A DNA stretch of 64,000 nucleotides from Nannocystales bacterium (lineage in GTDB: Bacteria; Myxococcota_A; Polyangia; Nannocystales; Nannocystaceae), in NCBI GenBank assembly GCA_050633305.1, contig JBOEGF010000018.1, positions 32,001 through 96,000 on the forward strand. The letters run 5' to 3'. Positions within the stretch are counted from its first letter, which is position 1, and each line of letters starts with the position of its first letter. Shown here piece after piece: positions 2,839 through 38,322 of this stretch. A model generated the notes under the pieces. That model saw only the letters and a list, made by a program, of their open reading frames with translations, had not been told where the DNA came from and did no database searches. The translations under genes were made by a program, and so were the position numbers.

Positions 2839-3803
2839 TTGATGAAGGCCGACTCGGCCTCGGCCTGTTCGGAGTGAACCCGCTCGATCCAGCGACGCAG
2901 TCGTCGTGCCACGAGCGACTTGGCCCACAGCTCAACGCCCATCCGTTCCTGGCGCATCTTGGTCCGCATGACTCGCTCCCGCATCGACAACGCGGCGATT
3001 TCGAGCGAACCGACTTCTGGGACATCGGAGACCTCGGGCATGTAGCCGCGCTTGAGCATCATGTCTCCGGCGCGCATTTCCACGTCGCGGGCCCATTGCT
3101 CCGGGTTCTTCCGCCAGGCGTCCGCGATCTTGCCGTCGACCTTGCTGTACGTCGAGTGCTGGTGGAACTCGAGCAGCGCGGGCTCGTACTCCACGCCCAT
3201 GAACTCGCACAGGCCGGTGAGCGCTTCTTTGGATCGTGTGGCGAGGTCTTCGAACCGCACCTCGGTCCACGCGTCGTCGTCGATTCGCTCGGCGAGGGCT
3301 TCCCACTCTTGCTCCGACTCCACCCACCGCTCGGCAGCGGCGTAGGGGGTCCCGTCCCAGCCCATGCGAACCGCGGAGGGAGCCACGGCGCGAGGGTCTC
3401 GTACGAGGTGGATGAATCGGGCGTGAGGCCAGTGGTCGAGTATGCGCGCGAAGTGCCGGTGCACGGTGCCTCCGATGGCGACGCAACCCTCGCCGCGCTG
3501 GTACAGCAGCGACTCGATCAACTCGCGGGCATTCCGGAACGGGTAGGCGCCGACGTCGAGCTTGGAGCGTCGGAACACCGAGTCGCCAGCGAGCCTGCCG
3601 ATCAGATCCAGCACCTCGGGGTGCGGCTGCCCCGGCGGTGTGTAGTCGACCAAAAACTCCATCTGGTGGGAGAAGCTGAGCTTGCTGTGCTGGTCGAGCA
3701 TCAGGCGCAGCAGCGTCGATCCGGACCGTTCCGCACCCACGACGAACGTCGGTGTCGCGGAGGTTTGCAGCCCAGGGACGGAAGGCTTTTCGTCACGCGC
3801 CAT
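2835..3803 (-). CDS. Sulfotransferase family protein (Sulfotransfer_3-like)
   Basis: 5'-PSB motif GAERSGSTLLR, 3'-PB motif HLVRDPRAVAPS, and RFEDL. Confidence 0.9.
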   Translation of the reverse strand: MARDEKPSVPGLQTSATPTFVVGAERSGSTLLRLMLDQHSKLSFSHQMEFLVDYTPPGQPHPEVLDLIGRLAGDSVFRRSKLDVGAYPFRNARELIESLLYQRGEGCVAIGGTVHRHFARILDHWPHARFIHLVRDPRAVAPSAVRMGWDGTPYAAAERWVESEQEWEALAERIDDDAWTEVRFEDLATRSKEALTGLCEFMGVEYEPALLEFHQHSTYSKVDGKIADAWRKNPEQWARDVEMRAGDMMLKRGYMPEVSDVPEVGSLEIAALSMRERVMRTKMRQERMGVELWAKSLVARRLRRWIERVHSEQAEAESAFIK

Positions 3804-3873
3804 GGCCGGGCGAGTATGGGACCGGCGCGCGGGTCGTTCAACGCTTTTTCGGGGACCTGATACGCTTGCGTTC

Positions 3874-5058
3874 GTGATGGAGACGACGCCCGACGGGTCC
3901 CCGGGCTTCTACGCTGCGCTCCCGGTCTTCGATCGTTTCGCCGAGGTTCACGACCCCGCGCGTTACAGCCCCGTGCCGCCCGATTGGGACGTGGTGGTGA
4001 CCGACGTGGAAGGCTCGACCAAGGCGATCGAGGCGGGCCGCTACAAGGACGTGAACGCGCTGGGCGTGGCATCGATCGTCGCACTTCGCAATGCGTTGCC
4101 TCGATTCGACGTTCCGTTCGTGTTTGGTGGCGACGGGGCGACTGTGCTCACACCGTCGTCCCGGCGGACGGAGGTCCACGCGGCGTTGCGGGGGATCCGT
4201 GTCATGGCGAAGGACGCGCTGGGGATGGTGATGCGGGCGAGCATGGTGCCCGTCGCCGAGCTCGAGGCCGCGGGGTGCGAGGTTCGGGTTGCGCGTTTCG
4301 GGGCCAGTCCCAATGCCACCTTCGCGATGTTCTCTGGGGCCGGCCTGAGCGAAGCCGAGCGGCGAATCAAGGACCCTTCCGAGGGGGCCGGCTACGCGGT
4401 GAGTGACGAAGGGCCGTCGGAGGCGAGCTTCGAGGGCTTCGAGTGTCGCTGGGAGCCTCTGGGTAGTCGTCGGGGGAAGGTGATCAGCCTGCTCGTGCAG
4501 GCGACGGCTGAGGACCGCACCGAGGCGGCGCTGGCCTATCACGAGGTTCTGGATGCAATTGCAGCCGTGCTCGGGGATACCGAGGGCCGACCGGTCGCAC
4601 CGGACAACCTCAACGTTGCCGCGCAAGGCCGCGCCTTTCAGACCGAGGCCCGCATCTGTGTCGGCAAGGCTGGGGGCCTGGGGGTGGTCGCACGGACCCA
4701 GGTGATCAAGGCGCAGGCTGCGGTGGGTCGCTACGGCATGGCGCGCGGTAAGGAGACCCTCGGATTCCCCGCCGACGTCTACCGCGACGAAGTTGTCGCC
4801 AACACGGACTTCCGCAAATTCGACGACACCCTTCGCATGGTCCTCGATGTCACCGACGAGCAACACCACGCGCTCGAGGCGGACCTGTCACAGCGTCATG
4901 CGGCGGGAAGCATCGTCTACGGAACCCATGTCGCGAACGCTGCTTTGATGACGTGTGCGATTACCAGCTATCGAGGCGAGCACGTTCACTTTGTCGACGG
5001 AGCAGACGGAGGCTATGCGTTGGCGGCAAAGCAGCTCAAGGCGCAGCGCAGCGGTTGA
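3874..5058 (+). CDS. DUF3095 family protein (nucleotide-cyclase-like)
   Basis: DVEGSTKAIEAGRYKDVN, FVFGGDGAT, DFRKFDDTLRMV, HFVDGADGGYALAA. Start is GTG 3874 or ATG 3877. Confidence 0.85.
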   Translation: MMETTPDGSPGFYAALPVFDRFAEVHDPARYSPVPPDWDVVVTDVEGSTKAIEAGRYKDVNALGVASIVALRNALPRFDVPFVFGGDGATVLTPSSRRTEVHAALRGIRVMAKDALGMVMRASMVPVAELEAAGCEVRVARFGASPNATFAMFSGAGLSEAERRIKDPSEGAGYAVSDEGPSEASFEGFECRWEPLGSRRGKVISLLVQATAEDRTEAALAYHEVLDAIAAVLGDTEGRPVAPDNLNVAAQGRAFQTEARICVGKAGGLGVVARTQVIKAQAAVGRYGMARGKETLGFPADVYRDEVVANTDFRKFDDTLRMVLDVTDEQHHALEADLSQRHAAGSIVYGTHVANAALMTCAITSYRGEHVHFVDGADGGYALAAKQLKAQRSG

Positions 5059-7203: not shown

Positions 7204-7481
7204 GCAAAGAGGATAGACCGCCTGCGAGGGCACAGGCCGGCCTATCTCTAGCCGGCGCGGGCCTTGGGTGGCCCGCTGCGGCTCCGGGCCTCGTGTGGCG
7301 CCACCCCGTTGGTTGCGCAATGCCGAGGTTCTGCCATCCTCGCCGCGTGCCCAAGCGTCGCCGACCGGTTCCCCTCGTGGCGCATACCCACAAGCCCCGC
7401 GCACTCGCCATCTCGGCGATCGTCGAGTGTCTTGGGGAGACAAGCGCCATCATCGACGATCTCACGGAGTACTCGAACCGG

Positions 7482-7685
7482 ATGAGCACGTACCGGTTCG
7501 AACTCGATGCAAATGACCTCGCGGGACTCGAGTCGCACCTGGGTCTGTCCGGTATCTCGCTCGAGGCGCGAGACCCGGCAGGGCCCATGGACACGGACGA
7601 TGAGGGCTATCTCTTCGTGACCTTGGCCGTCACATTCCCAGACGAAGATGGGAACCGGAAGGTTCCGAACCCAGACTTGGGCTAG
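7482..7685 (+). CDS. Small acidic hypothetical protein
   Basis: ATG preceded by GGAG. Protein-like composition (MSTYRFELDANDLAG...). No family recognised. Confidence 0.4.
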   Translation: MSTYRFELDANDLAGLESHLGLSGISLEARDPAGPMDTDDEGYLFVTLAVTFPDEDGNRKVPNPDLG

Positions 7686-7695
7686 GGGCCGTGAC

Positions 7696-8196
7696 TCACC
7701 CCGTCGCGCCGAGTTGAACGGTGCTGTGCTGTTGCTCGGCGTACTGTTTGAGCTCGGCCAGAATGCCGCGAAACGACTTTGCCAGTCCGAACTTGAGCAT
7801 GGGGTACAAGAGGTACCCGTGGGGCTTGAGGTCCGGAACGACGACCCAGCGCAGTTCGGTTTCGGATGGCCCCAAGGCACGCAAGGACAGCTCGACCTGG
7901 TTTTTGTGCAGCGGTAGGGCCTTGGGCGCGTGCACCGGAACGACATCGAACTTCAGGACGTGGTTGGCCTTGTCGTAGTGCGTGATCGTCTCCCGGGCAG
8001 CGAAGCCGTCGGGGTCGTCGGTGAACGTGCAGTACCGTCCCGCCATCGGAGACTCGCCCACCGCATCGAGGTCGCGGAGCGCTTCGGAGGTCACAACGGA
8101 CTCGCTCCAACGTTGGATCCCGGTGAAATCGTCCGCGGCGATTGCCCAAACGTCGTCGATGGGGCAGCTGATGTGGGTCTTGAGTTCGATCTTCAT
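7696..8196 (-). CDS. SRPBCC (polyketide cyclase/dehydrase-like) family protein
   Basis: ISCPIDDVWAIAADDF...RWS N-terminal pattern, RETITHYD, C-terminal amphipathic helix LAELKQYAE. Divergent from a LysR gene. Confidence 0.8.
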   Translation of the reverse strand: MKIELKTHISCPIDDVWAIAADDFTGIQRWSESVVTSEALRDLDAVGESPMAGRYCTFTDDPDGFAARETITHYDKANHVLKFDVVPVHAPKALPLHKNQVELSLRALGPSETELRWVVVPDLKPHGYLLYPMLKFGLAKSFRGILAELKQYAEQQHSTVQLGATG

Positions 8197-8380
8197 GGTG
8201 TTGCTCGTATCGGTTGCCGAAGCGTACGCAGAAACTGTGATTGTCTTTTGATTTCAGTGTTTTGGTAGCCGTCAGACCGACCCGCTGCACTGGACACCAT
8301 GAATGTAGTTCTCCCGTTTTCGGTCTTCAACGTACGATATTGGTGTTCAAAAATGCGAAATGTGGAAAAGTTGCGCGCCG

Positions 8381-9325
8381 ATGAACTGGGACGATCTTCG
8401 CTACATCCTGGCGGTTTCGCGGGCCGCGACAGTTCTGGAAGCCGCGAGGTCGCTGCGGGTCAGTCCCACGACCATGGCGAGGAGGCTGAGGTCCCTCGAA
8501 GCGTCCCAGGGGACCGCGCTCTTCGAGAAGTTCAAACACGGCACCGTCCTGTCCGAAGCGGGTCATCGGGTTGTTGAGGTCGCGGCGGAAGTCGAGCGCA
8601 TGACCGCGCAACTCGATGCGGAGATTCACGGCCTGGACCGGAAGCTGGAAGGGTCGATCCGCGTCACGTCGGTCGACTTCTTGCTTCGGCACTGGGTCGA
8701 GGATTTCGGTGAGTTCCGAACCCTCTACCCGGGGGTCGACCTCGAGCTGACCTCGACCCTGTCGGTGGTCAACCTGACCCAGCGGGATGCCGACGTCGCA
8801 CTTCGGGTCGCGCGTACAGCACCCGAACACCTCCTGGGTGCCCGCCATGCCGAGTTCATGTACGCGGTCTACGGCGGGCAGGCGCTGACCGAGTCGCGGG
8901 AGCCGGACGCACCCTACTCAGCCTTCCCGTGGTTGTCCTGGGACCTCGCGTTCGCGCGCTCGACCGACGAATGGATCGAGAAGAACGCGGCCGGTGCCGA
9001 CATCTCGATGCGGTTCGGCCAGATGAGTGTGATGGTCGATGCGGTCGCTGCCGGTCTGGGGCTCACCATTCTTCCATGTCTCATCGGCGACGCCCATCCC
9101 GGGCTCAACCGCGTCGGGACGTACTTCGAAGGAGGGCTGCATCTGTGGGTGTTGACCCATCCGCAGCTCCGAGGCTCGGCCCGGATCAGCGCATTCACGC
9201 GCTTCGTCCGCGAGCGAATCCGGCGTGACCTCGACCTGATCGAAGGCCGTCGGCCCCGCTCCGCGAGCGGCATCGCATCACCCCGCACGTCGGCGGACGA
9301 GCTCGCGTCGTCGCAGGAGCGATGA
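8381..9325 (+). CDS. LysR family transcriptional regulator
   Basis: MNWDDLRYILAVSR...AARSLRVSPTTMARRLRSLE HTH; DADVALRV in the substrate-binding domain. Confidence 0.95.
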   Translation: MNWDDLRYILAVSRAATVLEAARSLRVSPTTMARRLRSLEASQGTALFEKFKHGTVLSEAGHRVVEVAAEVERMTAQLDAEIHGLDRKLEGSIRVTSVDFLLRHWVEDFGEFRTLYPGVDLELTSTLSVVNLTQRDADVALRVARTAPEHLLGARHAEFMYAVYGGQALTESREPDAPYSAFPWLSWDLAFARSTDEWIEKNAAGADISMRFGQMSVMVDAVAAGLGLTILPCLIGDAHPGLNRVGTYFEGGLHLWVLTHPQLRGSARISAFTRFVRERIRRDLDLIEGRRPRSASGIASPRTSADELASSQER

Positions 9326-9345
9326 CCGGAGCTCCGCACCGCGTT

Positions 9346-9972
9346 TCAAAGGCACACTGAGGTGTCGAGTTGGCAGGCCTTGTCGCATGGAACAGGGTCG
9401 GTGGCGTCGCCCAGACCAAGGTCGGCACACGATGGAGACTCGAGTTCTGGTTCGCAGGTCTCTGTGTTCGCGATGACTCCGTCCCCGCACCCCCACTCGC
9501 ATCCGCTGAAATCGAATCTGCAGTTCGCCGGGTTGCAGCCGAGTACGCCGCCTGTGAAAACATGGTCGGGGTTCAGGATATCCTGCATTCCGACGCACAC
9601 CGCGAACCCAACACCTGCCGGCGTACAAGGCTCAAGTCCGCAGTCGCAGTCCTCGCCGCAGTTGATGAGCCCGTCCCCGCACGGGGAGTCGCAGGCCGAG
9701 CCATAGCTGCTACTTGAACCGCTCGATGTGCTGGCGGTCTTTGTTCCGCTTCCGGTGTCGTCGTCCGTACTCGCGGAGGTGCTTCCTCCGGGTTGCGACG
9801 TGCTGCCCTCGGTCGAGGGCAGTCGTGGGCTGGAGGTGCTGACGTTCGAGATGCCCGAACTCGAGGAGCCGGTTCCTCCAGCGCCACCGGAGGACTCGGC
9901 GCTGGGGCTCGAGCTGCCACATCCACCCACGGCGACAGCAAAGACCCAACCCAGCCGCGATGGCGTGCGCAT
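9346..9972 (-). CDS. Cys-rich myxobacterial lipoprotein (CGDG-type Cys-rich repeats)
   Basis: Lipobox AVAVGGC, S/T-rich linker, CGDGLINCGEDCDCG and CGDGVIANTETCE repeats. Confidence 0.8.
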   Translation of the reverse strand: MRTPSRLGWVFAVAVGGCGSSSPSAESSGGAGGTGSSSSGISNVSTSSPRLPSTEGSTSQPGGSTSASTDDDTGSGTKTASTSSGSSSSYGSACDSPCGDGLINCGEDCDCGLEPCTPAGVGFAVCVGMQDILNPDHVFTGGVLGCNPANCRFDFSGCEWGCGDGVIANTETCEPELESPSCADLGLGDATDPVPCDKACQLDTSVCL

Positions 9973-10070
9973 GCCTGACTCTACCGGATTGGACCGGAGG
10001 TCGGAGAGGCCAGCCGTGCCCCGACGAGGCGCTGACCTCGTTCGGATGTGCTTGCGGCTTGCTGCTGTGG

Positions 10071-10203
10071 TGCTAAGGACCCTCGAACGAAAGCGATCGA
10101 ACATTGTAGTGCTCCCCACCGATAGTCCGTCGACCTTCTCCGCTTAGCGACCGGAGCAGAGCCGACGTGTCCGAGGACGGCGTTTGCCGCCCTCACGGTG
10201 AGT
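10071..10203. repeat. Degenerate direct repeat, left copy (pairs with 17171-17302)
   Basis: 10071-10180 aligns ungapped to 17171-17280 at 87/110 identity. After a 1-nt indel, CCTCACGGTGAGT is identical in both copies. Confidence 0.9.
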
Positions 10204-10254
10204 TTCTCGCGAGCCTGGCCTTCCGGATGGTCTCGCGAACACGGAGAGCAAACG

Positions 10255-10893
10255 ATGAAACGCTTCAAATACCCCCGTACGCGCCACCTGCCGTGGTCGC
10301 CCGGGGCCAGTAAAGATGACCTCATGGCGAAGGGCGTTGAGCCCTTCGTCGGGCAGCGCGTGATCGTGTCCGAGAAGATGGATGGTGAGAACACCACCTT
10401 GTATCGCGACCACGTTCACGCCCGCTCGGTCGACAGCCGCCACCACCCGTCACGGGATTGGGTCAAAGGCTTGCATGGCCGCGTCGCCTTTCAGATTCCC
10501 GAGGGGTGGCGGCTGTGCGGGGAGAACCTGTACGCGGTCCACTCGGTCGCGTACCGAGCGCTTCCGAGCTACTTCATGCTGTTTTCGGTCTGGGATGCGG
10601 CCAATCGCTGCCTTGGCTGGGATGAGACCACCGAGTGGGCCGAGCTGCTGGGCATCCGCACGGTGCCAGTCTTGTACGACGGCGTCTTCGACCCCGTTTG
10701 GTTTGAGGCCTTCTGCTGTGACACGGACGTGAGCGAGGGCTATGTCGTTCGGCTCGCCGACGGTTTCGAGTTCGCCGAGTTCGGCAAGAGCGTGGCCAAG
10801 TGGGTTCGCAGCGGCCACGTGCGAACGGACGAACACTGGATGCACAAGCCTGTGGTTCCCAACGAACTGGCCGAGGTGGAGGGAGAGTCGTGA
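10255..10893 (+). CDS. ATP-dependent RNA ligase family protein (ligase 1)
   Basis: KYPRTRHLPWSPG N-terminus, nucleotidyltransferase motif I EKMDG, then CGEN, FMLFSVWD, EGYVVR, KWVR. Confidence 0.9.
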   Translation: MKRFKYPRTRHLPWSPGASKDDLMAKGVEPFVGQRVIVSEKMDGENTTLYRDHVHARSVDSRHHPSRDWVKGLHGRVAFQIPEGWRLCGENLYAVHSVAYRALPSYFMLFSVWDAANRCLGWDETTEWAELLGIRTVPVLYDGVFDPVWFEAFCCDTDVSEGYVVRLADGFEFAEFGKSVAKWVRSGHVRTDEHWMHKPVVPNELAEVEGES

Positions 10894-12221
10894 AGAGGCT
10901 GGTCGAGAGCATCGAGGCAGGGGTACAGCCCTCGATCGCGGAATTCGTCGCGGGGCTCGGGGACGTCATTCCTGCGATGCGTCAGCTCGAGAGCACGCCG
11001 CAAGACCCCGGCTGGCACGCGGAAGGGAACGTCTTCATTCACACGGGGATGGTGTTGGACGCTCTGTACGAGCTGCTCGCGACACGGGCGGCATCGGTTG
11101 TCGGCCCACGACGCACCGCGCTGATCTTGGCTGCGGCGCTTCATGATGTCGCAAAGCCGTTGACCACCCGCCCGATGGAGATCCGCGGCGTTCAGCGGAC
11201 CGCGGCTCCGCGCCACGAGATGCGCGGTCGGTCGATGTTGTCCCTGTTGCTGATGGAGCAGGGGCTGGACTACCGGTTGATCGAGGGCGTCGCTGACCTC
11301 GTCGGCTACCACGTCGCGCCCAAGTTTCTGGTCGTCAAGGGGCGGGAGCGGGGAGCGTACTTGCGTTTGGCCCAGGCCGCGGACCCCGAGCTGCTGTACT
11401 GGCTCGAGCTGGCGGACATGATCGGGCGGACTTGTGTCGATCAGCGGAAGCAGATCGAGCACATCGAGATGTTCGGCCTCTTTGCCCAAGAGTACGGCGC
11501 CTGGCGGCGGTTCGCCGATGAGGCTCCTGCGTGGCGGGCGATGTTTCGCGATGGGGTCGAAGGAACTCCCGCGATGCAGGATCTCAGTCATGGGCAGTTC
11601 ATCCACGACCTGTGTGCGGGAACGGTATCGCAACCGGAGGAAGGCATCGCCCGCAGCTACCGATTTCGCCAGGGGTTTCCCGAACTGGTGATCACGGTCG
11701 GGCCCAGCGGGTCGGGGAAGTCCACTTGGGTCAAGCGGCATCTCGAAGACCACGTCTGCATCAGCCTCGATGACATCCGAAGCGAGCTCGGTGGGCGTGG
11801 CGATCAGTCTCGCAACGGTGAGGTCCGCCGCCTCGCGCGAGAGCGACTGCGCGAAGGGTTGAGGCAGAATCGAAAGACCGTCTGGGACGCCACCAGTCTA
11901 CGGCGAGACTTCCGGGACTCGCTGACGAAGCTGGCCTTCGATTACGGAGCGCTGGTCACCCTCGTTTGCTTTCCGCGGGCCCCACGGACCTACCATCGTC
12001 GAAACCGTGAGCGAGACAACCCGGTCCCTGCGAGCGTGCTCGACGGGCAGATCGAAGTCCTTCAGTGGCCCTCGCGTCTCGAAGGCCATCGTTGGCTCGT
12101 GGTGGACGAAGACGGAGCTGCGTTAGCCTACTACGGCGGGTTGGGCGAGGAGCTGCCGTACGGTGCTGCCTCGGCGCGTGACGTACTGCGAGAGTGGGAT
12201 GGCGAGGCGGTGGTGCGATGA
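10890..12221 (+). CDS. HD-domain phosphohydrolase fused to P-loop polynucleotide kinase (AAA_33-like)
   Basis: WHAEGNVFIHT, AALHDVAKP and ADMIGR (HD); GPSGSGKSTW, ISLDDIR and WDATSLRR (PNK-type kinase). GTGA overlap with ligase 1. Confidence 0.9.
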   Translation: MKRLVESIEAGVQPSIAEFVAGLGDVIPAMRQLESTPQDPGWHAEGNVFIHTGMVLDALYELLATRAASVVGPRRTALILAAALHDVAKPLTTRPMEIRGVQRTAAPRHEMRGRSMLSLLLMEQGLDYRLIEGVADLVGYHVAPKFLVVKGRERGAYLRLAQAADPELLYWLELADMIGRTCVDQRKQIEHIEMFGLFAQEYGAWRRFADEAPAWRAMFRDGVEGTPAMQDLSHGQFIHDLCAGTVSQPEEGIARSYRFRQGFPELVITVGPSGSGKSTWVKRHLEDHVCISLDDIRSELGGRGDQSRNGEVRRLARERLREGLRQNRKTVWDATSLRRDFRDSLTKLAFDYGALVTLVCFPRAPRTYHRRNRERDNPVPASVLDGQIEVLQWPSRLEGHRWLVVDEDGAALAYYGGLGEELPYGAASARDVLREWDGEAVVR

Positions 12222-12988
12222 TCGTGTTGCCTCAATACCCGCGGACCCTGCATCTGGGGGACTCCGGTGGCCAGCAGTCCAAACACCATTGCCCCTTCGG
12301 CGAGGTCGAAGGCCTTCATGTCGCGATCGAGGAGAAAGTTGACGGGAGTCATTGCGGGCTTGCGTTCGATGTCGAGGCCGAACTTCGGGTGTTTTCTCGC
12401 AACACGGTGCTCGAGCGCTCGCCCGCGCAGCGAGATTTTCGCCCCCTCGCTCGGCTTGCTCGTGAGCAGGTGGATGGACTCTGGGACGTGCTGAGCGACC
12501 GGTACGTGTTGTACGGGGAGTGGACCTGGGCCACCCATTCGATCTTCTACGACGCACTGCCGACGTTCTTCCTCGAGGATGACGTGTTCGATCGAAAGGC
12601 GGGTCGGTTTCTGTCGACGCTCGGCCGGCGGACCCTGGTTTCGAAGCTTCCGGTCGGGTTCGACTGTTCGGTGGCGCTGCTGCACGAGGGGACGGTCTCG
12701 GGTCTTGATGCGTTGCGCTCGATGGTGGGCCCTTCGCACTACAAGTCTCCGCGGTGGCGCGAACGGTGCCCGGCTGTTGCGTCGGTCGAGGACACCGACC
12801 TCATGGAGGGGCTGTACATCAAGGTCGAGAGTGAGGCGTTCGTCGAGCGGAGGCTGAAGTGGATCCGGCCAACGTTCCTGGGACACATTGCGAGTGCACC
12901 AGGGCACTGGCGCGATCGCCCGACGATGAAAAACCTCCTGGCGGAGAGGGCCGCAGTTGCCGCGACGGACACCGGAGCCGACCGATGA
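12218..12988 (+). CDS. ATP-dependent RNA ligase family protein (ligase 2)
   Basis: QYPRTLHL, EEKVDGSH, LYGEW, EGLYIK, KWIR. ATGA overlap with the HD-kinase gene. Confidence 0.85.
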   Translation: MIVLPQYPRTLHLGDSGGQQSKHHCPFGEVEGLHVAIEEKVDGSHCGLAFDVEAELRVFSRNTVLERSPAQRDFRPLARLAREQVDGLWDVLSDRYVLYGEWTWATHSIFYDALPTFFLEDDVFDRKAGRFLSTLGRRTLVSKLPVGFDCSVALLHEGTVSGLDALRSMVGPSHYKSPRWRERCPAVASVEDTDLMEGLYIKVESEAFVERRLKWIRPTFLGHIASAPGHWRDRPTMKNLLAERAAVAATDTGADR

Positions 12989-13036
12989 CATCGCCCCGAA
13001 AGGGGCAGGACGGCCTGCGGCCCGTATAGTTGTGGA

Positions 13037-14017
13037 GTGTGGGCACTGAAGAACCGCTCGCCGCATGGCGTCGGGCGGAACTGGGTCCGGGACGAGCATG
13101 GAGTGCATCACTGGCTCGTCGCTCTCAAGGCGACGTTTGAGATTGGCGCGGGCGGCACGCTGACGCTGGCAGACGAGCAACCCGAGCCCGCACTGGAGCC
13201 TGAGTACCGGGGGGAGCCGGGGAAGAGCAGCCTGGTGCAGGACGGCGAACTCAACGGCATGAAACCGACCACGGAGGTGCTGGTGCGCGGCATGGCGCAC
13301 GCTCCTGGGGGAAGAGCTGCGGAGTCGGTCCGGGTTTCGGTCCGTTGCGGCCCGGTCCAGAAGTCCATCATGGCGTATGGGCCTCGGGTGTACTTCGAGG
13401 GCGTCACAGGGGTCCGCACCACGGAACCGGCGCCGTTCGTCACCACTCCCGTCATGTATGAGCACGCGTTCGGGGGGTGGAACGATGATGACGACGACCC
13501 CGCCAAGCAACGGCTCGACGAGCGAAATCCGGTGGGTCGAGGTTTCGGCCGGTCGGCGAAAGACCTCGCCAACACATCGGCGCACACGCTGGAGAGTGAG
13601 GGGGACGGACCGGCGGGGTTCGGTCCGATCGACCCGAGCTGGCTTCCACGGCGCGGTTTCGCAGGAACCTACGACGCCGCGTGGGTGGAGAAGAAGAAGC
13701 CGCTTCTGCCCGACGACTTCGACCCTCGCTTCCACATGAGCGCGCCGTTGGACCAGCATGCGCCGACGTATCTGCGCGGGGGGGAGCCGGTCGGTGTGCT
13801 CAACATGACGCCCGAGGGACGGGTTGCGTTTCCGCTCCCGACGCTCGACGTTCGGATGACGTCGGTGTTCGGGCGGCGCAGGGTGAACCACGCAGGGGAA
13901 CTCACCACGGTGAGTCTGGACCTCGAGGCTCGCACCCTGCAGCTGTTGTTTCAAAGCAGCACGAAAGTCGCGGCGGCAGATGTCGATCGACTCGACTTCA
14001 CCGAGGTGATCGCATGA
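13037..14017 (+). CDS. DUF2169 family T6SS effector adaptor/chaperone
   Basis: LKATF, KPTTEVLVRGMAHAPGG, YEHAFGG, NPVGRGF, PAGFGPIDPSWLPRRGFAGTYDAAW, PLLPDDFD. Confidence 0.9.
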   Translation: MWALKNRSPHGVGRNWVRDEHGVHHWLVALKATFEIGAGGTLTLADEQPEPALEPEYRGEPGKSSLVQDGELNGMKPTTEVLVRGMAHAPGGRAAESVRVSVRCGPVQKSIMAYGPRVYFEGVTGVRTTEPAPFVTTPVMYEHAFGGWNDDDDDPAKQRLDERNPVGRGFGRSAKDLANTSAHTLESEGDGPAGFGPIDPSWLPRRGFAGTYDAAWVEKKKPLLPDDFDPRFHMSAPLDQHAPTYLRGGEPVGVLNMTPEGRVAFPLPTLDVRMTSVFGRRRVNHAGELTTVSLDLEARTLQLLFQSSTKVAAADVDRLDFTEVIA

Positions 14018-15042
14018 GCGTACTCGACGTCGTGGCGATGGGCGCCCGAACACCTGTTGGGTTGCGGGTCGACGCAACCGCGGCGGCGATTCGGTCTGGC
14101 CTTTCGGGCATCGCCGAACTCGCGTTTGTCGACGGCAAAGGGAGCCCCATCTGCGGCGCGGCCGACCGCCGTCTCGAACCCGCGGTCCGGGGCCACTCGC
14201 GCATGGCGGAACTCCAAGCATCGGCGCTGGAGGAGGCGCTGGGGAGCCTCGAGCTTACGGACGTGCCGTGTCGGCTGTGGTCGGTCTTACCCGAGACACG
14301 CCCGGGGTTTGGCGACGAGGACGCTCGGCGCCTCGTTGCCGCGGCGGCGTCTCGCCTCGTGAAGAGCGGGGCACGCGTCGAGACGCGCACGTGTGGCCGC
14401 GGTCATGCGGGCGCTGCTCAGGCGCTGGTACGCGCGAGCGCCGAGGAGAGCGAAGCGGTCCATGTCGTCGTCGGGGTCGACAGCTACCTGCACCCGCACA
14501 CCTACGTCTGGCTCGAACAGCAGGGGCTTCTCGCGCAAGAGGGCGCGCGCAACGGGGTCGTGCCGGGAGAGGCGGCCTGTTGTTTGGTCTTGGCATCGGC
14601 CGCCTTGCAGTCGCAGCTTCGTGTCCAGCCCCTCGCGCGGGTCGCCGGGGCCGGGCATGCGCGAGAAGAGCGGTTGCGGGACAGCGAATCCGGTTCACTG
14701 GGCGTCGGACTCACGCGCGCTGTGCTCGATGCGGGGGCGGGTCTCGCATTTCCGGACCAGGCTGCAGACGCCGTCTTCGCCGACCTCAACGGTGACCGTT
14801 ACCGAAGCGAGGAGTGGGCGTTCTTGGCTTTGCGGGCGCCGGTCGCCATGCGTTCCTTGCAGTACCGCTCGCCCGTCGGAAGCGTGGGCGACGTCGGGGC
14901 GGCGTTCATGCCCCTGTCGATCGCCTTGGCGGCCGAATCGTTTGCGCGCGGGTACGCCCCTGGGCCCCGCGCGTTGGTGACTGCGGGGTCCCACGGCGGA
15001 CTTCGGGGGGCTGTGTTTCTCGCGACAAAAGAGGCTGCATGA
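14014..15042 (+). CDS. Thiolase/beta-ketoacyl-synthase-like T6SS accessory protein (PRK06147-like)
   Basis: MGARTPVG, VGVDSYL, GVVPGEAA, DLNGDRYRSEEW, VGDVGAA. Lies between DUF2169 and DUF4150 with ATGA overlaps. Confidence 0.85.
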   Translation: MSVLDVVAMGARTPVGLRVDATAAAIRSGLSGIAELAFVDGKGSPICGAADRRLEPAVRGHSRMAELQASALEEALGSLELTDVPCRLWSVLPETRPGFGDEDARRLVAAAASRLVKSGARVETRTCGRGHAGAAQALVRASAEESEAVHVVVGVDSYLHPHTYVWLEQQGLLAQEGARNGVVPGEAACCLVLASAALQSQLRVQPLARVAGAGHAREERLRDSESGSLGVGLTRAVLDAGAGLAFPDQAADAVFADLNGDRYRSEEWAFLALRAPVAMRSLQYRSPVGSVGDVGAAFMPLSIALAAESFARGYAPGPRALVTAGSHGGLRGAVFLATKEAA

Positions 15043-16394
15043 GTGTCATCGTCAATGGACCGAAGACCCCCGTCACCGCAGGAAGCACTGGGATCGCGAT
15101 GGCGACGGTTCCCAACATTTGCAAGATGCCCGGGCCCCCAGCGCCGTTCGTGCCGACGCCGTTGCCCAACATCGGGAAGAGCGACAGTTCGCCGAAGAAG
15201 TACACCAAGAAGGTGAAGTTGGAGAGCAAGGCGGCCGCCATCGCGGGCGCGACGTTCACCTCCACCGGAGACGTGGCTTCGAAGGGGACCGGGGGAGGGC
15301 TCGTCTCTTCGAACACCCACGGGCCGACGAGTTTTGTCGGGCCGGGCTCCTTCGACGTGAAGTTCGAGGGCAAGAACGTACAGTTGCTCGGCGACCCGAT
15401 GCTCAACAACTGCGGCGGCAGCGGAAACCCACCCAACTCGGCGACGCTGGCGGGCGTGCTTCAGAAGCCGGGCCTCATTGCGGTGCTCGGCGACGAACCC
15501 TGCCCTGCGTGCGGGGAGACCCACGGAGACGACACCAAGCTCGAGGAGAGCGAGGATACGCAAGGGCTCTGCGACGAGCTCTTTGCGGCCGCAGACAAGG
15601 GGGTGAAGGAGGCCCAGAAAACGGCCGACGCGCAGCATAAGGCCGACTACGACGCCATGAAGCAGGCGTTTAAGGACCTCCAAGCCGCGATTGACGATGA
15701 ACTCGAGAGAGACGATCTCAGCAAGAACGCGCGCAGGAAGCTGGAGAAACAGAAGAAAAAGAAGGAGCCCAAGGAACCGCCGAAACGGAAGGTCGGGTAC
15801 ACCGCGATGGCGGGGGTCGTGAAGTGCAAACACGGCGAGGTGTTTGCGGGATTCTCTGGAACGCAGCGATGGGAGGTGTACGACGCGCTCCCCGGGGGCT
15901 GGCACAGCCCCAAGGCCTACGAGACCGATCGGCTCGTCGACAAGGTTGCGGCCAAGAACCTCTCCAAGGAGCGGGTGGGTGCGCACGTCAAGGCGAACCT
16001 GGATACGCTGTGGGACATCTGCGAGCGGGGGAACGCGGCTTTCCGTGCGGCTGGGGGAGCTGGATTTGCGTGGTACCCACCCGGTATGTGCGCCGCACAG
16101 CAGATGGTGGTGTTGGCGATGGACCATCAGTGTCGCCCGATCGGGCTGACTGAGCGCTGGTACAAGAACGGCGATCCCAACGCCGTGCCCGCCGGAGACC
16201 TATGGGTGCGGGACATGACGCCTTCGGGGCCAAGCGCGAAGCGAAAAATCGAGCCGTCGGAGATGGGCAAGAAGAAGGCGGTGCCGCCCTGCGAGACATG
16301 TCAGGTCATGCTTGCCGCCTTGCTCTGCACCCAAGACGGATTCACCGAGTGTGAATACAAGGCACCCAAGGCGGGAGTCTGCAAATGCACGTAG
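15039..16394 (+). CDS. DUF4150 (PAAR-like) effector with putative Zn-binding deaminase-like toxin domain
   Basis: N-terminal PNICKMPGPPAPFVPTPLPNIG...GSFDVKFEGKNV...GDPMLNN (DUF4150). C-terminal FAGFSG, PPGMCAAQQ, LTERWY, PPCETC. Confidence 0.8.
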   Translation: MSVIVNGPKTPVTAGSTGIAMATVPNICKMPGPPAPFVPTPLPNIGKSDSSPKKYTKKVKLESKAAAIAGATFTSTGDVASKGTGGGLVSSNTHGPTSFVGPGSFDVKFEGKNVQLLGDPMLNNCGGSGNPPNSATLAGVLQKPGLIAVLGDEPCPACGETHGDDTKLEESEDTQGLCDELFAAADKGVKEAQKTADAQHKADYDAMKQAFKDLQAAIDDELERDDLSKNARRKLEKQKKKKEPKEPPKRKVGYTAMAGVVKCKHGEVFAGFSGTQRWEVYDALPGGWHSPKAYETDRLVDKVAAKNLSKERVGAHVKANLDTLWDICERGNAAFRAAGGAGFAWYPPGMCAAQQMVVLAMDHQCRPIGLTERWYKNGDPNAVPAGDLWVRDMTPSGPSAKRKIEPSEMGKKKAVPPCETCQVMLAALLCTQDGFTECEYKAPKAGVCKCT

Positions 16395-16411
16395 TCGGCA
16401 GCGGTACCGCG

Positions 16412-17161
16412 ATGACCGAAAGCTTCGTCGCACTGGCGGAGTCCGTCGTGCCGGGGTGCGCCAAGACTTGGAAGGGGGCGACCGAGGACGAAGTCGATGA
16501 GATCGAGTTCTTCGCAGCCCAGGACTTGCCCCCGTTCTATCGCTGGTTTCTCGAGACCATGGGGGAGGACATGGGGTTGCTCGGGCACGCTTACCTCGAC
16601 CTGCGCGCAAAAACCGTACTTGCGGCGTATAACACCTTCGAGGTTCGGCGAGGCGAGGGGCCTCTGTACATCGGGCGCCATCCCGAGCCCGCGTTTCCCT
16701 TTCGCCAGTTCCTCGACCTGGACGCCCCGTGCCGCGAGGACGCCGCCGTCCTGGAGGAGCCCGAAGCCGGCGGCGATCGAACCCGGGCCTTCGAGACCCT
16801 GCGGGAGCAGCTCGCGTGGGGACTGTTGGTGCGATGCCGGCTCGCCACCGCACCGCAGCAGTTCATCGGCGCCGCGTCGAGCCCAGGTGGTGACGTCGTC
16901 GACGCGTTGCAGCCGGCCTTGGCCACCCTCGGCTGGAACTCGATGTTGGACACCGGCCGCTATTGCGGGTTGTACGAACGCGGACAGGAGTTGCTGCTGC
17001 TCTCCAACCGCGTGGATCCGAAGCGGCACGAGACACTCGTCGTGCAGGCGGGCGCGGCTGATGCCGTGACGCTAAGGGCGGCGCTAGGAGAGCTCGCGGT
17101 GACGGCGGACGTGAAGGTCGAAGCGCTGCGGTGGGAGCCTCCGCTGCCCGACGCAGGGTGA
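16412..17161 (+). CDS. Putative immunity protein, SMI1/KNR4 (SUKH)-like N-terminus
   Basis: GATEDEVDEIE...LPPFYRWFLETMG motif, directly downstream of the toxin gene. Confidence 0.7.
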   Translation: MTESFVALAESVVPGCAKTWKGATEDEVDEIEFFAAQDLPPFYRWFLETMGEDMGLLGHAYLDLRAKTVLAAYNTFEVRRGEGPLYIGRHPEPAFPFRQFLDLDAPCREDAAVLEEPEAGGDRTRAFETLREQLAWGLLVRCRLATAPQQFIGAASSPGGDVVDALQPALATLGWNSMLDTGRYCGLYERGQELLLLSNRVDPKRHETLVVQAGAADAVTLRAALGELAVTADVKVEALRWEPPLPDAG

Positions 17162-17170
17162 GCGTGGTTG

Positions 17171-17302
17171 TGCTAGGGACCGTCGAACGAGAGCGGTCAA
17201 ACGTTGTAGCGCTCCCTGCCGATCGTCCGTTGAGTCTCCCCGCGTCGCGACCGGAGCGAGTTCGACGTGTCCGAGGGCGGTTTCCCCGTCCTCACGGTGA
17301 GT
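17171..17302. repeat. Degenerate direct repeat, right copy (pairs with 10071-10203)
   Basis: Offset 7100 bp from the left copy. Starts 10 bp after the immunity gene stop. Confidence 0.9.
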
Positions 17303-17825
17303 CGAACGCGTGCTCAGCCTTTGGCTGGGTCTTGCGACGTACATCGAGTCCGTAAGCTAGGCGCACCTCACGAAGCCAGGTGCGTCTATCACCGAGTTTC
17401 CGCCTCGTTGGCGCGGAGCGAAGTCGCGCGTCGGCCCACCGCAGCAGCGCAGTCGTTGGGTCGTCATCAGAGCCTGAGCACCGCCGAGACGGGTGGCATG
17501 GGCCGGGTGTGCTCAGCGTCGTGAGGCACTGCGGCACCTCCGTCGGTCGTGGGAAGAGCCCTCGCTCCGTCGGGTCGGGGGGAGGGGCGTTTCCACCAAG
17601 CTGGGGGCTGAGGACAGCGGTATGCTTCGTGGCGTTGGACCGCAGGACGTCCAGCGCGCGGCCCGTTGTCGAGACCGGTGCCCAACACCGAAGGGTCTCA
17701 CTGTCTTGGTCTATGAGGTCCGCCTGGGTGACGTCTTGCGCTTCGAAGAGAAGCGCGCGCAGCACAGGCACTGCGTACTTTGCGTGCGCGATGGGTGCTC
17801 GCTCGCACGAAGGCATGCGTGTCAC
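17292..17825 (-). pseudogene. Possible decayed gene or hypothetical ORF ending inside the right repeat
   Basis: 177-aa ORF with patchy protein-like segments. Its TGA lies in the 13-nt block shared by both repeat copies. Confidence 0.25.
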
Positions 17826-31066: not shown

Positions 31067-31153
31067 CGGAGTCGGAGGGATTCGAACCCTCGGTACCGTT
31101 TCCAGTACGCAGATTTAGCAAACCTGTGCCTTCAGCCTCTCGGCCACGACTCC
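31067..31153 (-). tRNA. tRNA-Ser(GCT), CCA not encoded
   Basis: GGAGTCG/CGACTCC acceptor stem, CAGGT-TTGCTAA-ATCTG anticodon arm, long variable arm, GAGGGTTCGAATCCCTC T arm. Confidence 0.97.

Positions 31154-38248: not shown

Positions 38249-38322
<74 letters not shown>

Follow-up and report, generated by a model that had tools for sequence, protein, structure and literature searches.

In a 64,000-nucleotide stretch of a Nannocystales bacterium contig (hereafter the window), seven genes lie between two direct repeats, with a set of end-healing and ligase genes at one side and a toxin–immunity module at the other. The question that this locus raises is whether it represents one exchangeable unit, in which RNA repair gives a second line of protection against an RNA-damaging effector, as the initial annotation proposed. 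Its basic description was borne out. The seven co-oriented open reading frames are all present, with 4-nt GTGA or ATGA overlaps at four of the six gene junctions and a gap of 48 bp (12989-13036) between ligase 2 and the DUF2169 gene. The two repeats (10067-10203 and 17167-17302) are real, with 80% identity over 138 nt (E 1.6e-26), and the gene identities hold, as does the reading of the DUF2169 and PRK06147-like proteins as type VI secretion system (T6SS) adaptors. The features of the locus are as follows.

10052..10079, + strand: predicted promoter of housekeeping-sigma type for the ligase operon (TTGCGG, 16 nt, TG-C-TAAGGA)
10067..10238, + strand: repeat copy 1, which corresponds to the -10 region of ligase 1 and its 5′ leader, defined from alignments
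10255..10893, + strand: ligase 1, ATP-dependent, adenylyltransferase domain only (PF09414, E 1.8e-32)
10890..12221, + strand: HD-Pnk, HD phosphoesterase and P-loop polynucleotide kinase (HD and AAA_33 matches)
12218..12988, + strand: ligase 2 (PF09414), of a clade distinct from ligase 1 (28% identity)
12983..13036, + strand: upstream region of the toxin module, with a -10-like TATAGT at 13025-13030, 6 nt before the GTG
13037..14017, + strand: DUF2169 (TvpA) PAAR chaperone (PF09937, E 2.8e-81)
14014..15042, + strand: PRK06147-like (TvpD) co-chaperone (NF004798, E 1.2e-55, full length, at 189 bits under the curated equivalog cut-off of 342)
15039..16394, + strand: toxin, 451 aa, with a DUF4150/PAAR-like domain (aa 21-125) and, at the C-terminus (aa 248-451), a putative TrcP-type zinc deaminase domain
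16089, 16152, 16290 and 16299, + strand: predicted catalytic residues C351, E372, C418 and C421 of the toxin
16412..17161, + strand: SUKH (SMI1/KNR4)-like immunity protein, the start of which may be 16385
17167..17337, + strand: repeat copy 2, which begins at the -10 region and ends before the ribosome site
17511..17813, - strand: remnant of a 240-aa gene

Our reading is that the stretch is probably a mosaic of two independent units that have met at a variable site. A PADLOC search gave no match better than E 0.019.

The toxin is the most informative of the seven genes. Among the family sequences, C351 is conserved in 77 of 77, E372 in 77 of 78, and C418 and C421 both in 76 of 76. When the toxin was aligned by hhalign with TrcP homologues, a probability of 96.4 (E 1.5e-9) was obtained, with a score of 55.7 compared to at most 18.5 in 25 shuffles. 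The four residues align to C282, E303, C324 and C328, which are present in Vibrionaceae homologues of the TrcP-like pseudouridine synthase, and the Cys-to-Glu spacing is 21 in both. According to the part of PMC9553926 used here, these TrcP residues are needed for editing. In addition, when the genome was searched with the family profile, the sole other match was to a TrcP-like pseudouridine synthase, in its N-terminal domain. For the N-terminal half of the toxin domain, an MxGV strand aligns with TrcP, at a score of 14.7 against a shuffle maximum of 18.7. The structure model of the domain (pLDDT 93) matched blasticidin S deaminase best (PDB 3oj6; Z 5.0, rmsd 2.9, 77 aligned residues) and the top 10 rows were all deaminases; since fold Z-scores were at most 5.2, in the range that the tool terms common, the assignment was made by motif and profile and not by Z alone. 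General searches were silent. Pfam found no family in 26 members of the toxin domain (one match at E 0.06), a PDB sequence search gave no match, Foldseek returned nothing at E <= 0.001 and the ESM Atlas gave unnamed matches only. Furthermore, a search with the toxin profile in 400 other genomes sampled from across the phylum, with only eight candidates scored per genome, gave no match.

Judged by its motif and profile, the C-terminal domain is probably a TrcP-type zinc deaminase and thus a base editor rather than a nuclease. This speaks against an RNA-cleaving effector at the locus, and the ligases would therefore receive no direct substrate from the toxin. The likeliest activity would be C-to-U deamination of RNA, with tRNA first, and we tentatively hold that a TrcP-type toxin acting on RNA comes close to an even call. 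A possible, if rather doubtful, alternative leaves the mosaic as it is and has the toxin deaminate either DNA, as DddA and SsdA do, or free nucleotides. DNA is the target of the T6SS deaminase toxins that have been characterised, as far as described in the parts of PMC7901873 and PMC12494967 used here; the fold matches include DddA and a T6S deaminase of P. syringae, and the helical tRNA-binding domain of TrcP is missing from the toxin. However, by sequence profile the toxin is closest to TrcP, which edits RNA, and none of 77 family sequences has the canonical H/C-x-E motif of DNA deaminase toxins, the third position being A (67), G (9) or M (1).

The gene downstream of the toxin encodes its putative immunity protein. 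Pfam gave no match for this ORF, and the SUKH call comes from ESM Atlas features (0.94-0.95) and structure matches to SMI1/KNR4 clusters, the top Atlas cluster containing PF09346 in 20% of its members. At all 19 genomic toxin loci, and at 21 of the 22 from metagenomes, the toxin is followed by a SUKH gene. The predicted complex of the toxin domain with the SUKH protein scored 0.65, while the best control scored 0.00. Of 157 solved complexes 116 attain a score of 0.65, as do 2 of 215 mismatched pairs. The runs had at least 74% of contacts in common, and the pLDDT of the partner was at least 84.

The rest of this unit is consistent with an orphan type VI secretion spike module. The DUF4150/PAAR-like domain matches PF13665 with 60 bits (cut-off 31), and the genome encodes two full TssC, one Hcp and eight VgrG proteins over the cut-off. 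The DUF2169 and PRK06147-like proteins would act as chaperones that load the DUF4150 domain on a VgrG from another locus; the spike would then deliver the deaminase to neighbouring bacteria, and the SUKH protein would neutralise it at home. Both delivery by the T6SS and toxicity of the deaminase are thus predicted from gene content. The module may also have its own promoter. Homology to congeners that lack the upstream ligase begins at 12982-12983, and in 15 of 18 loci the DUF2169 start is preceded, at a distance of 5-14 nt, by a TAnnnT element, compared to a background of 1.2%.

The other unit resembles a LigB/HD-Pnk-type end-healing and sealing operon, which would have its own promoter and leader. 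Ligase 1 carries an intact motif I (EKMDG) and is the orthologue of the first gene of the ligase operon of D. radiodurans MP1 (54% over 207 aa). HD-Pnk shows 39% identity to the third gene of that operon, its kinase part is similar to structures of Pnkp kinases (E 2e-9), and the motifs HAEG..H, HD, D176, GPSGSGKS and DDIR are all in place. In other genera of the family HD-Pnk has a ligase partner to which ligase 2 is about 40% identical. HD-Pnk enzymes turn 2′,3′-phosphate and 5′-OH ends into ligatable ends. Extrapolating from the orthologues, the HD-Pnk of this operon would heal such ends and the ligases would subsequently seal them, on RNA or DNA. Nick-sealing RNA ligases of the Rnl5 type have an N-terminal OB domain and a length of about 340 aa; these features are missing from the two ligases, which have 212 and 256 aa, and the best match to the D. 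radiodurans RNA ligase gene had an E of 0.03. The label 'RNA repair' is not established, because in Deinococcus the ligB operon is induced by radiation and linked with DNA repair, and LigB by itself is not demonstrated to join ends of DNA or RNA in the portions of PMC6300522 and PMC5397189 used here.

To what extent do the two units occur without each other? At the same site, five of six congeners are empty of the repeat, the ligase and the toxin module. In G001 the toxin module is present without ligases or repeats; as its lipoprotein gene is truncated at the 5′ end, the two halves may once have been joined there, with the ligases lost since. In both G003 and G005, the leader with ligase/HD-Pnk and the toxin module are on different contigs. 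In the fetched flanks of 58 out of 60 other ligase/HD-Pnk loci, homologues of DUF2169, PRK06147, PAAR-like and SUKH proteins were all absent; 54 had 1 kb or more of downstream sequence, and among 164 flanking ORFs we found one PAAR-like match. From the toxin side, 32 of 33 other toxin matches are without a ligase/HD-Pnk partner; two 27-aa ligase matches inside toxin genes (L224 and L225) were dropped as spurious. None of the 22 metagenome toxin loci contained repair genes, on contigs that are mostly short and of which five show 1 kb upstream. The halves do co-occur in one independent case, L156 from another genus, where ligase, HD-Pnk, a DUF4150 protein with a related deaminase domain and SUKH follow each other in one direction. 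At the corresponding site L170 carries a 28-codon PAAR remnant.

This second adjacency raises the explanation that ligase/HD-Pnk genes are recruited repeatedly beside this toxin family as a second line behind SUKH. Deaminated bases would become strand breaks, through uracil excision in DNA or through nucleases in tRNA, and the operon would heal and seal them. The two independent adjacencies share gene order and toxin family and involve different ligase and HD-Pnk clades. A further joint case is rarer than expected by uniform chance (1-11% from the repair side; less than 1% from the toxin side, by a hand estimate of 28 loci x 2 / about 9,000 genes), and no terminator was called in the 48-bp gap, so that read-through is possible. 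However, the partner is missing at nearly all of the other loci counted above, the toxin module has its own -10-like element, and the deaminase itself makes no broken ends. Moreover, both sites are hotspots: seven congeners differ in content at the site in the window, and the DNA after HD-Pnk is different in each of L156, L169, L170, L171 and L172. A functional link between repair genes and toxin is thus unlikely, and recruitment for that purpose has little probability. The fullest form of the idea, an RNA-editing TrcP-descended T6SS toxin in myxobacteria with ligase/HD-Pnk operons repeatedly upstream that repair the resulting breaks, is more doubtful still. The coupled system is weakly supported, and the toxin itself is a real lead.

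In the mosaic reading, the repeats require another explanation than cassette ends, and comparison of related loci provided it. The pattern TTGC-N15-TGCTA occurs once in the window and 13 times in the genome, and it is found once before the ligase in eight of eight related loci (L105-L112; expected 0.002). A strict sigma-70 scan made no call at 10052..10079, which on this conservation may act as the promoter of the ligase operon. Copy 1 carries a conserved TTG-TAG (10104-10109), and its CTCCC (10112-10116) can pair with the GGAGAG ribosome site (10243-10248); in the predicted consensus fold, CUCUC is paired with the ribosome site in seven of eight sequences at most columns. Copy 1 has a -35 box, whereas copy 2 has neither this box nor a ligase downstream. 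The two copies are 75% identical over 150 columns, the identity of the leader between species being 68-75%, and weak likeness extends to 10238/17337 (71% over 52 nt). The initial annotation would have been undermined by a repeat that is common genome-wide; this was not seen, as these two are the only strong copies in the 11-Mb genome. An RNA model of the repeat, searched in 72 genomes, found strong copies in G000 (two), G003 and G005 only, and four weak matches (G068, G071, G073 and G077) directly upstream of a ligase operon. Going by this model and the congener site comparison, the leader appears to be absent at toxin-side loci. Other identities for the repeat were rejected: Rfam gave no match in the region, single-sequence z-scores for a stable structure were -0.6 and +0.2 (+ strand), and the two best weak matches elsewhere in the genome, in tssC genes, vanished with a four-sequence model and were therefore taken as chance.

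The 'repeats' are thus the ligase leader and a decayed, promoter-truncated orphan duplicate of it, and not recombination ends. They flank the seven genes closely, and to that extent the proposed bracketing stands. They are not symmetric ends, as the -35 box is present at copy 1 only, and the variable island (about 7250-17500 relative to congener G002) exceeds the bracketed 7.1 kb. Next to it lies the gene remnant at 17511..17813, which is 41% identical to aa 23-172 of the gene that is intact at the empty site of G002, with a deletion and with the 3′ part gone. That the repeats are ends of one mobile cassette that excises or inserts by recombination between them is very improbable: although they closely flank the genes and exist in just two copies, their identity is only 75-80%, none of the seven genes is a recombinase, none of six congeners showed an empty site with a lone repeat, the island continues about 2.8 kb beyond copy 1, and the repeat sequence is promoter and leader at other loci. 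Likewise, one exchangeable repeat-bracketed unit is not what we found, since the repeat accompanies only the ligase operon and either half is found in the absence of the other. As this locus illustrates, a duplicated promoter and leader can mimic the ends of a cassette.

Each part of the mosaic can be compared with a known system. The repair unit shares with the D. radiodurans ligB operon (DR_B0100-DR_B0099-DR_B0098, old tags assigned by gene order and not from the record) a LigB-type ligase followed by HD-Pnk. In contrast to that operon, the TIGR02452/PARG middle gene is absent here, ligase 1 overlaps HD-Pnk directly, and a second ligase comes after HD-Pnk. The toxin unit has TvpA/DUF2169, TvpD/PRK06147 and a DUF4150 effector in an order identical to that of the class II Tvp cluster (P. 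aeruginosa PA0097-PA0098-Tse7; PMC13373197, in the part used here), again followed by an immunity gene. It differs in that vgrG and TvpC/DUF6484 are missing, the upstream genes are ligases with the VgrGs encoded elsewhere, and the toxin domain is a predicted TrcP-type deaminase with SUKH immunity.

The SUKH-paired toxin deaminases YwqJ, XOO_2897, BURPS668_1122 and MafB19 (PMC3239186) likewise combine a C-terminal deaminase-fold toxin with PAAR delivery and SUKH. According to the table rows of that paper, these clades have H/C-x-E in helix 2, whereas C-A-A/G is found here; its main text mentions neither 'RluA' nor 'DUF4150'. A toxin of the TrcP-type kind was not found in the literature searched. 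With the cytidine deaminase domain of TrcP itself, a tRNA C-to-pseudouridine editor (PMC9553926, in the sections used here), the domain shares three zinc cysteines, a glutamate that lies 21 residues past the first Cys and is shifted to the next strand, the GxCAA motif and PDB 3oj6 as best structural match. Unlike TrcP, it lacks the long tRNA-binding helical domain and the RluA pseudouridine synthase (no PUS match), has CxxC instead of CxxxC with a preceding loop that is 25 residues longer, and is fused to a PAAR-like N-terminus. As described there, TrcP homologues all keep both domains and the deaminase forms a separate family. In about 80 sequences, a predicted TrcP-type active site is thus carried by a PAAR-like spike and accompanied by a cognate SUKH gene, which makes these a candidate new effector family, and the compact predicted deaminase (about 200 aa) has a substrate that would be readable by sequencing.

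We found the seven co-directional open reading frames, their four 4-nt overlaps, a 48-bp gap and the two repeats as described in the initial annotation. Families were called with Pfam and NCBIfam, and the features in window coordinates are:

10067-10238, repeat copy 1, before ligase 1
10255-10893 (+), ligase 1 (PF09414)
10890-12221 (+), HD-Pnk (HD and AAA_33)
12218-12988 (+), ligase 2 (PF09414)
13037-14017 (+), DUF2169 protein
14014-15042 (+), PRK06147-like protein
15039-16394 (+), DUF4150/PAAR-like toxin (Tox-PAAR-like)
16412-17161 (+), SUKH-like protein
17167-17337, repeat copy 2, after the SUKH-like gene

The seventh gene gave no match in the Pfam search and was grouped with SMI1/KNR4 proteins on its features and predicted structure. 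That the repeats bracket a single repair-toxin cassette, as had been proposed, is largely unsupported: the halves separate, and the repeat is upstream sequence of the ligase operon. Two tRNA genes (31067-31153, −; 38249-38322, +) are distant from the island.

The content of the site, from the biotin-carrier gene (17846) to the gene at 3682-5058, differs in all seven genomes of the genus. The congener G002 has an intact 240-aa gene beside a GNAT gene, of which the window retains only a remnant, so the insertion, at about 10 kb, is larger than the bracketed 7.1-kb segment. At this site, G002, G003, G004, G005 and G006 contain neither repeat nor ligase nor toxin module. G001 harbours the toxin module there, across two contigs, without ligases or repeats. 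The Cys-rich probable lipoprotein gene divergent from the ligase promoter (9346-9972, −) is reduced in G001 to its last 89 codons; because of this truncation, the ligases may have been lost or may, equally well, never have been there. In G003 and G005, toxin module and ligases lie on different contigs. Homology of the toxin module begins at 12982-12983. Of 18 loci, which are kin and not independent, 15 have TAnnnT 5-14 nt 5′ of the start of DUF2169, versus a background of 1.2%. The module thus carries its own predicted promoter.

Identity between the two repeats is 80% across 138 nt (E 1.6e-26), and the 11-Mb genome holds no further strong copy. G003 and G005 have one copy each, immediately 5′ of the first ligase and with no adjoining toxin module. 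When a sequence model from four copies was run on 72 genomes of the family, these four were the only strong matches; four weak ones lie just 5′ of the ligase operon in G068, G071, G073 and G077. The motif TTGC-N15-TGCTA, conserved in the aligned ligase upstream regions, has a single occurrence in the window (10052) and 13 in the genome, and lies once 5′ of the ligase in each of the eight related loci L105-L112 (expected 0.002). We read it from its sequence as a predicted −35 box plus an extended −10 box, which a strict scan for sigma-70 promoters did not call. Copy 2 starts 5 nt past the stop of the immunity gene, lacks the −35 box, stops short of the ribosome site and has no ligase downstream. 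It is 75% identical to copy 1, between-species copies being 65-75% identical, and both share a 3′ stretch absent from the congener copies. Copy 2 is best read as an old, decayed duplicate.

In L105-L112 (8/8), a start codon with an immediate stop, (T/G)TG-TAG or TAA, lies 120-170 nt 5′ of the ligase (window 10104-10116), the genome rate being 0.08 per 250 nt. The distant loci L064 and L117 have ATG-TAG, and the pair is missing in 8 of 12 distant loci. A CU-rich stretch 3′ of it could pair with the ribosome site; speculatively, the two possibly form a translation-sensing attenuator.

Functional coupling between the two halves appears unlikely. Using tblastn with the window's proteins, we screened 60 other ligase/HD-Pnk loci, 25 with an HD-Pnk closely related to that of the window and 35 of a second clade; three duplicate loci and two partial matches to HD alone were excluded. 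Of the 60, 54 extended 1 kb or more downstream, and 58 lacked any toxin-module gene. Pfam searches of 164 flanking ORFs gave mixed neighbours with one PAAR-like match. From the toxin side, one of 33 other matches in the family adjoins an HD-Pnk match by coordinates, as do none of 22 metagenome loci, where 1 kb of upstream sequence is available for only 5 and 1 kb of downstream sequence for 9. Two exceptions count against independent halves. L156 carries ligase, HD-Pnk, a DUF4150 gene whose C-terminal domain is related, and SUKH, in a single orientation (7988-11876). At the corresponding site of a congener of the L156 genome (L170), 28 codons of the PAAR gene remain. Given 4-8 PAAR-like genes in each genome, the uniform chance of one more adjacency is 1-11%, and from the toxin side below 1% by a hand estimate. 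The L156 site is also a hotspot whose DNA differs in each of five genomes, so the true chance is higher than uniform. A deaminase does not cut the backbone; the toxin would therefore give the ligases no direct substrate, and a link would require secondary cleavage. The ligase and SUKH genes of L156 read as split; L157, in the same assembly, also has splits, and those of L156 may be sequencing errors.

HD-Pnk enzymes heal ends of both DNA and RNA. The complete ligase-HD-Pnk-ligase triad is found in 6 of 8 close loci. In ten second-clade loci (L177, L179, L181, L185, L189-L192, L196, L198), a class I methyltransferase gene lies directly 5′ of ligase and HD-Pnk in the same direction, an arrangement we take to resemble Hen1-type RNA repair operons. 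Ligase 1 shares 54% identity with the first gene, and HD-Pnk 39% with the third, of a three-gene operon on the D. radiodurans megaplasmid, by gene order the ligB operon. According to PMC6300522 and PMC5397189, this operon is radiation-induced; end-joining of DNA or RNA was not shown for LigB alone, and in one study DNA was ligated with DR_B0098 and PprA.

The C-terminal toxin domain had no Pfam match and no PDB sequence match. In 79 sequences (five repetitive matches dropped), C351, E372, C418 and C421 are almost invariant; Ala or Gly occupies the position of the usual catalytic Glu. Deaminases filled all top ten rows of a fold search with the domain model (pLDDT 93), led by blasticidin S deaminase (Z 5.0, by itself weak; rmsd 2.9; 77 aligned). 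The only other match of the toxin-family profile in the genome was the N-terminal domain of an RluA-type protein, whose Vibrionaceae homologues have C282, E303, C324 and C328. According to PMC9553926, TrcP requires these residues to edit C to U in tRNA, and the TrcP model also matched PDB 3oj6. In a profile alignment, the toxin family matched seven TrcP-like domains over their C-terminal half at probability 96.4 and E 1.5e-9 (score 55.7, with no more than 18.5 across 25 shuffles), but over the N-terminal half it did not exceed the shuffles run for that half. The genome's own TrcP-like deaminase and pseudouridine synthase (L203:967-2364, contig G000:C14) retains each of the four catalytic residues and has a helical insert that is short. 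Kinship with TrcP would make RNA the likeliest target, with about an even chance; DNA or nucleotides are the rival targets.

A SUKH homologue lies 3′ of the toxin in 19/19 genomic and 21/22 metagenome loci. The predicted toxin-SUKH complex scored 0.65 (best control 0.00). Among solved complexes, 116 of 157 attain this level, as do 2 of 215 mismatched pairs. Runs agreed in 74% or more of their contacts, with partner pLDDT of at least 84. This modelling supports binding. At L166, L215-L217 and L229, SUKH paralogues form arrays of two or three 3′ of the toxin.

Two full tssC genes, one hcp and eight vgrG are encoded in the genome; no vgrG adjoins the toxin module. We propose that the module would load the PAAR-like spike on a VgrG supplied in trans, that the spike would deliver a zinc deaminase and that SUKH would block it in the producer cell. 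A PAAR-like paralogue (G000:C12:1318-1989) has residues 2-228 in common with the toxin, apparently not the toxin domain, which is consistent with tip swapping. In the congener locus L013, DUF2169 overlaps the PAAR toxin directly, without a PRK06147-like gene. The toxin's named relatives come from Myxococcota, Nannocystis among them.

In a partial literature search, including PMC3239186, PMC7901873 and 10.64898/2026.07.13.738213, no publication turned up that links a TrcP-type domain with a toxin, or the ligase/HD-Pnk repair operon with a DUF4150 module. Supplements of toxin surveys may list the deaminase domain already; the toxin is a variant worth testing, not met in the literature covered. 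Both halves are of known kinds, and the class II Tvp clusters (PMC13373197) have the same DUF2169, PRK06147, DUF4150 order as the window's module.
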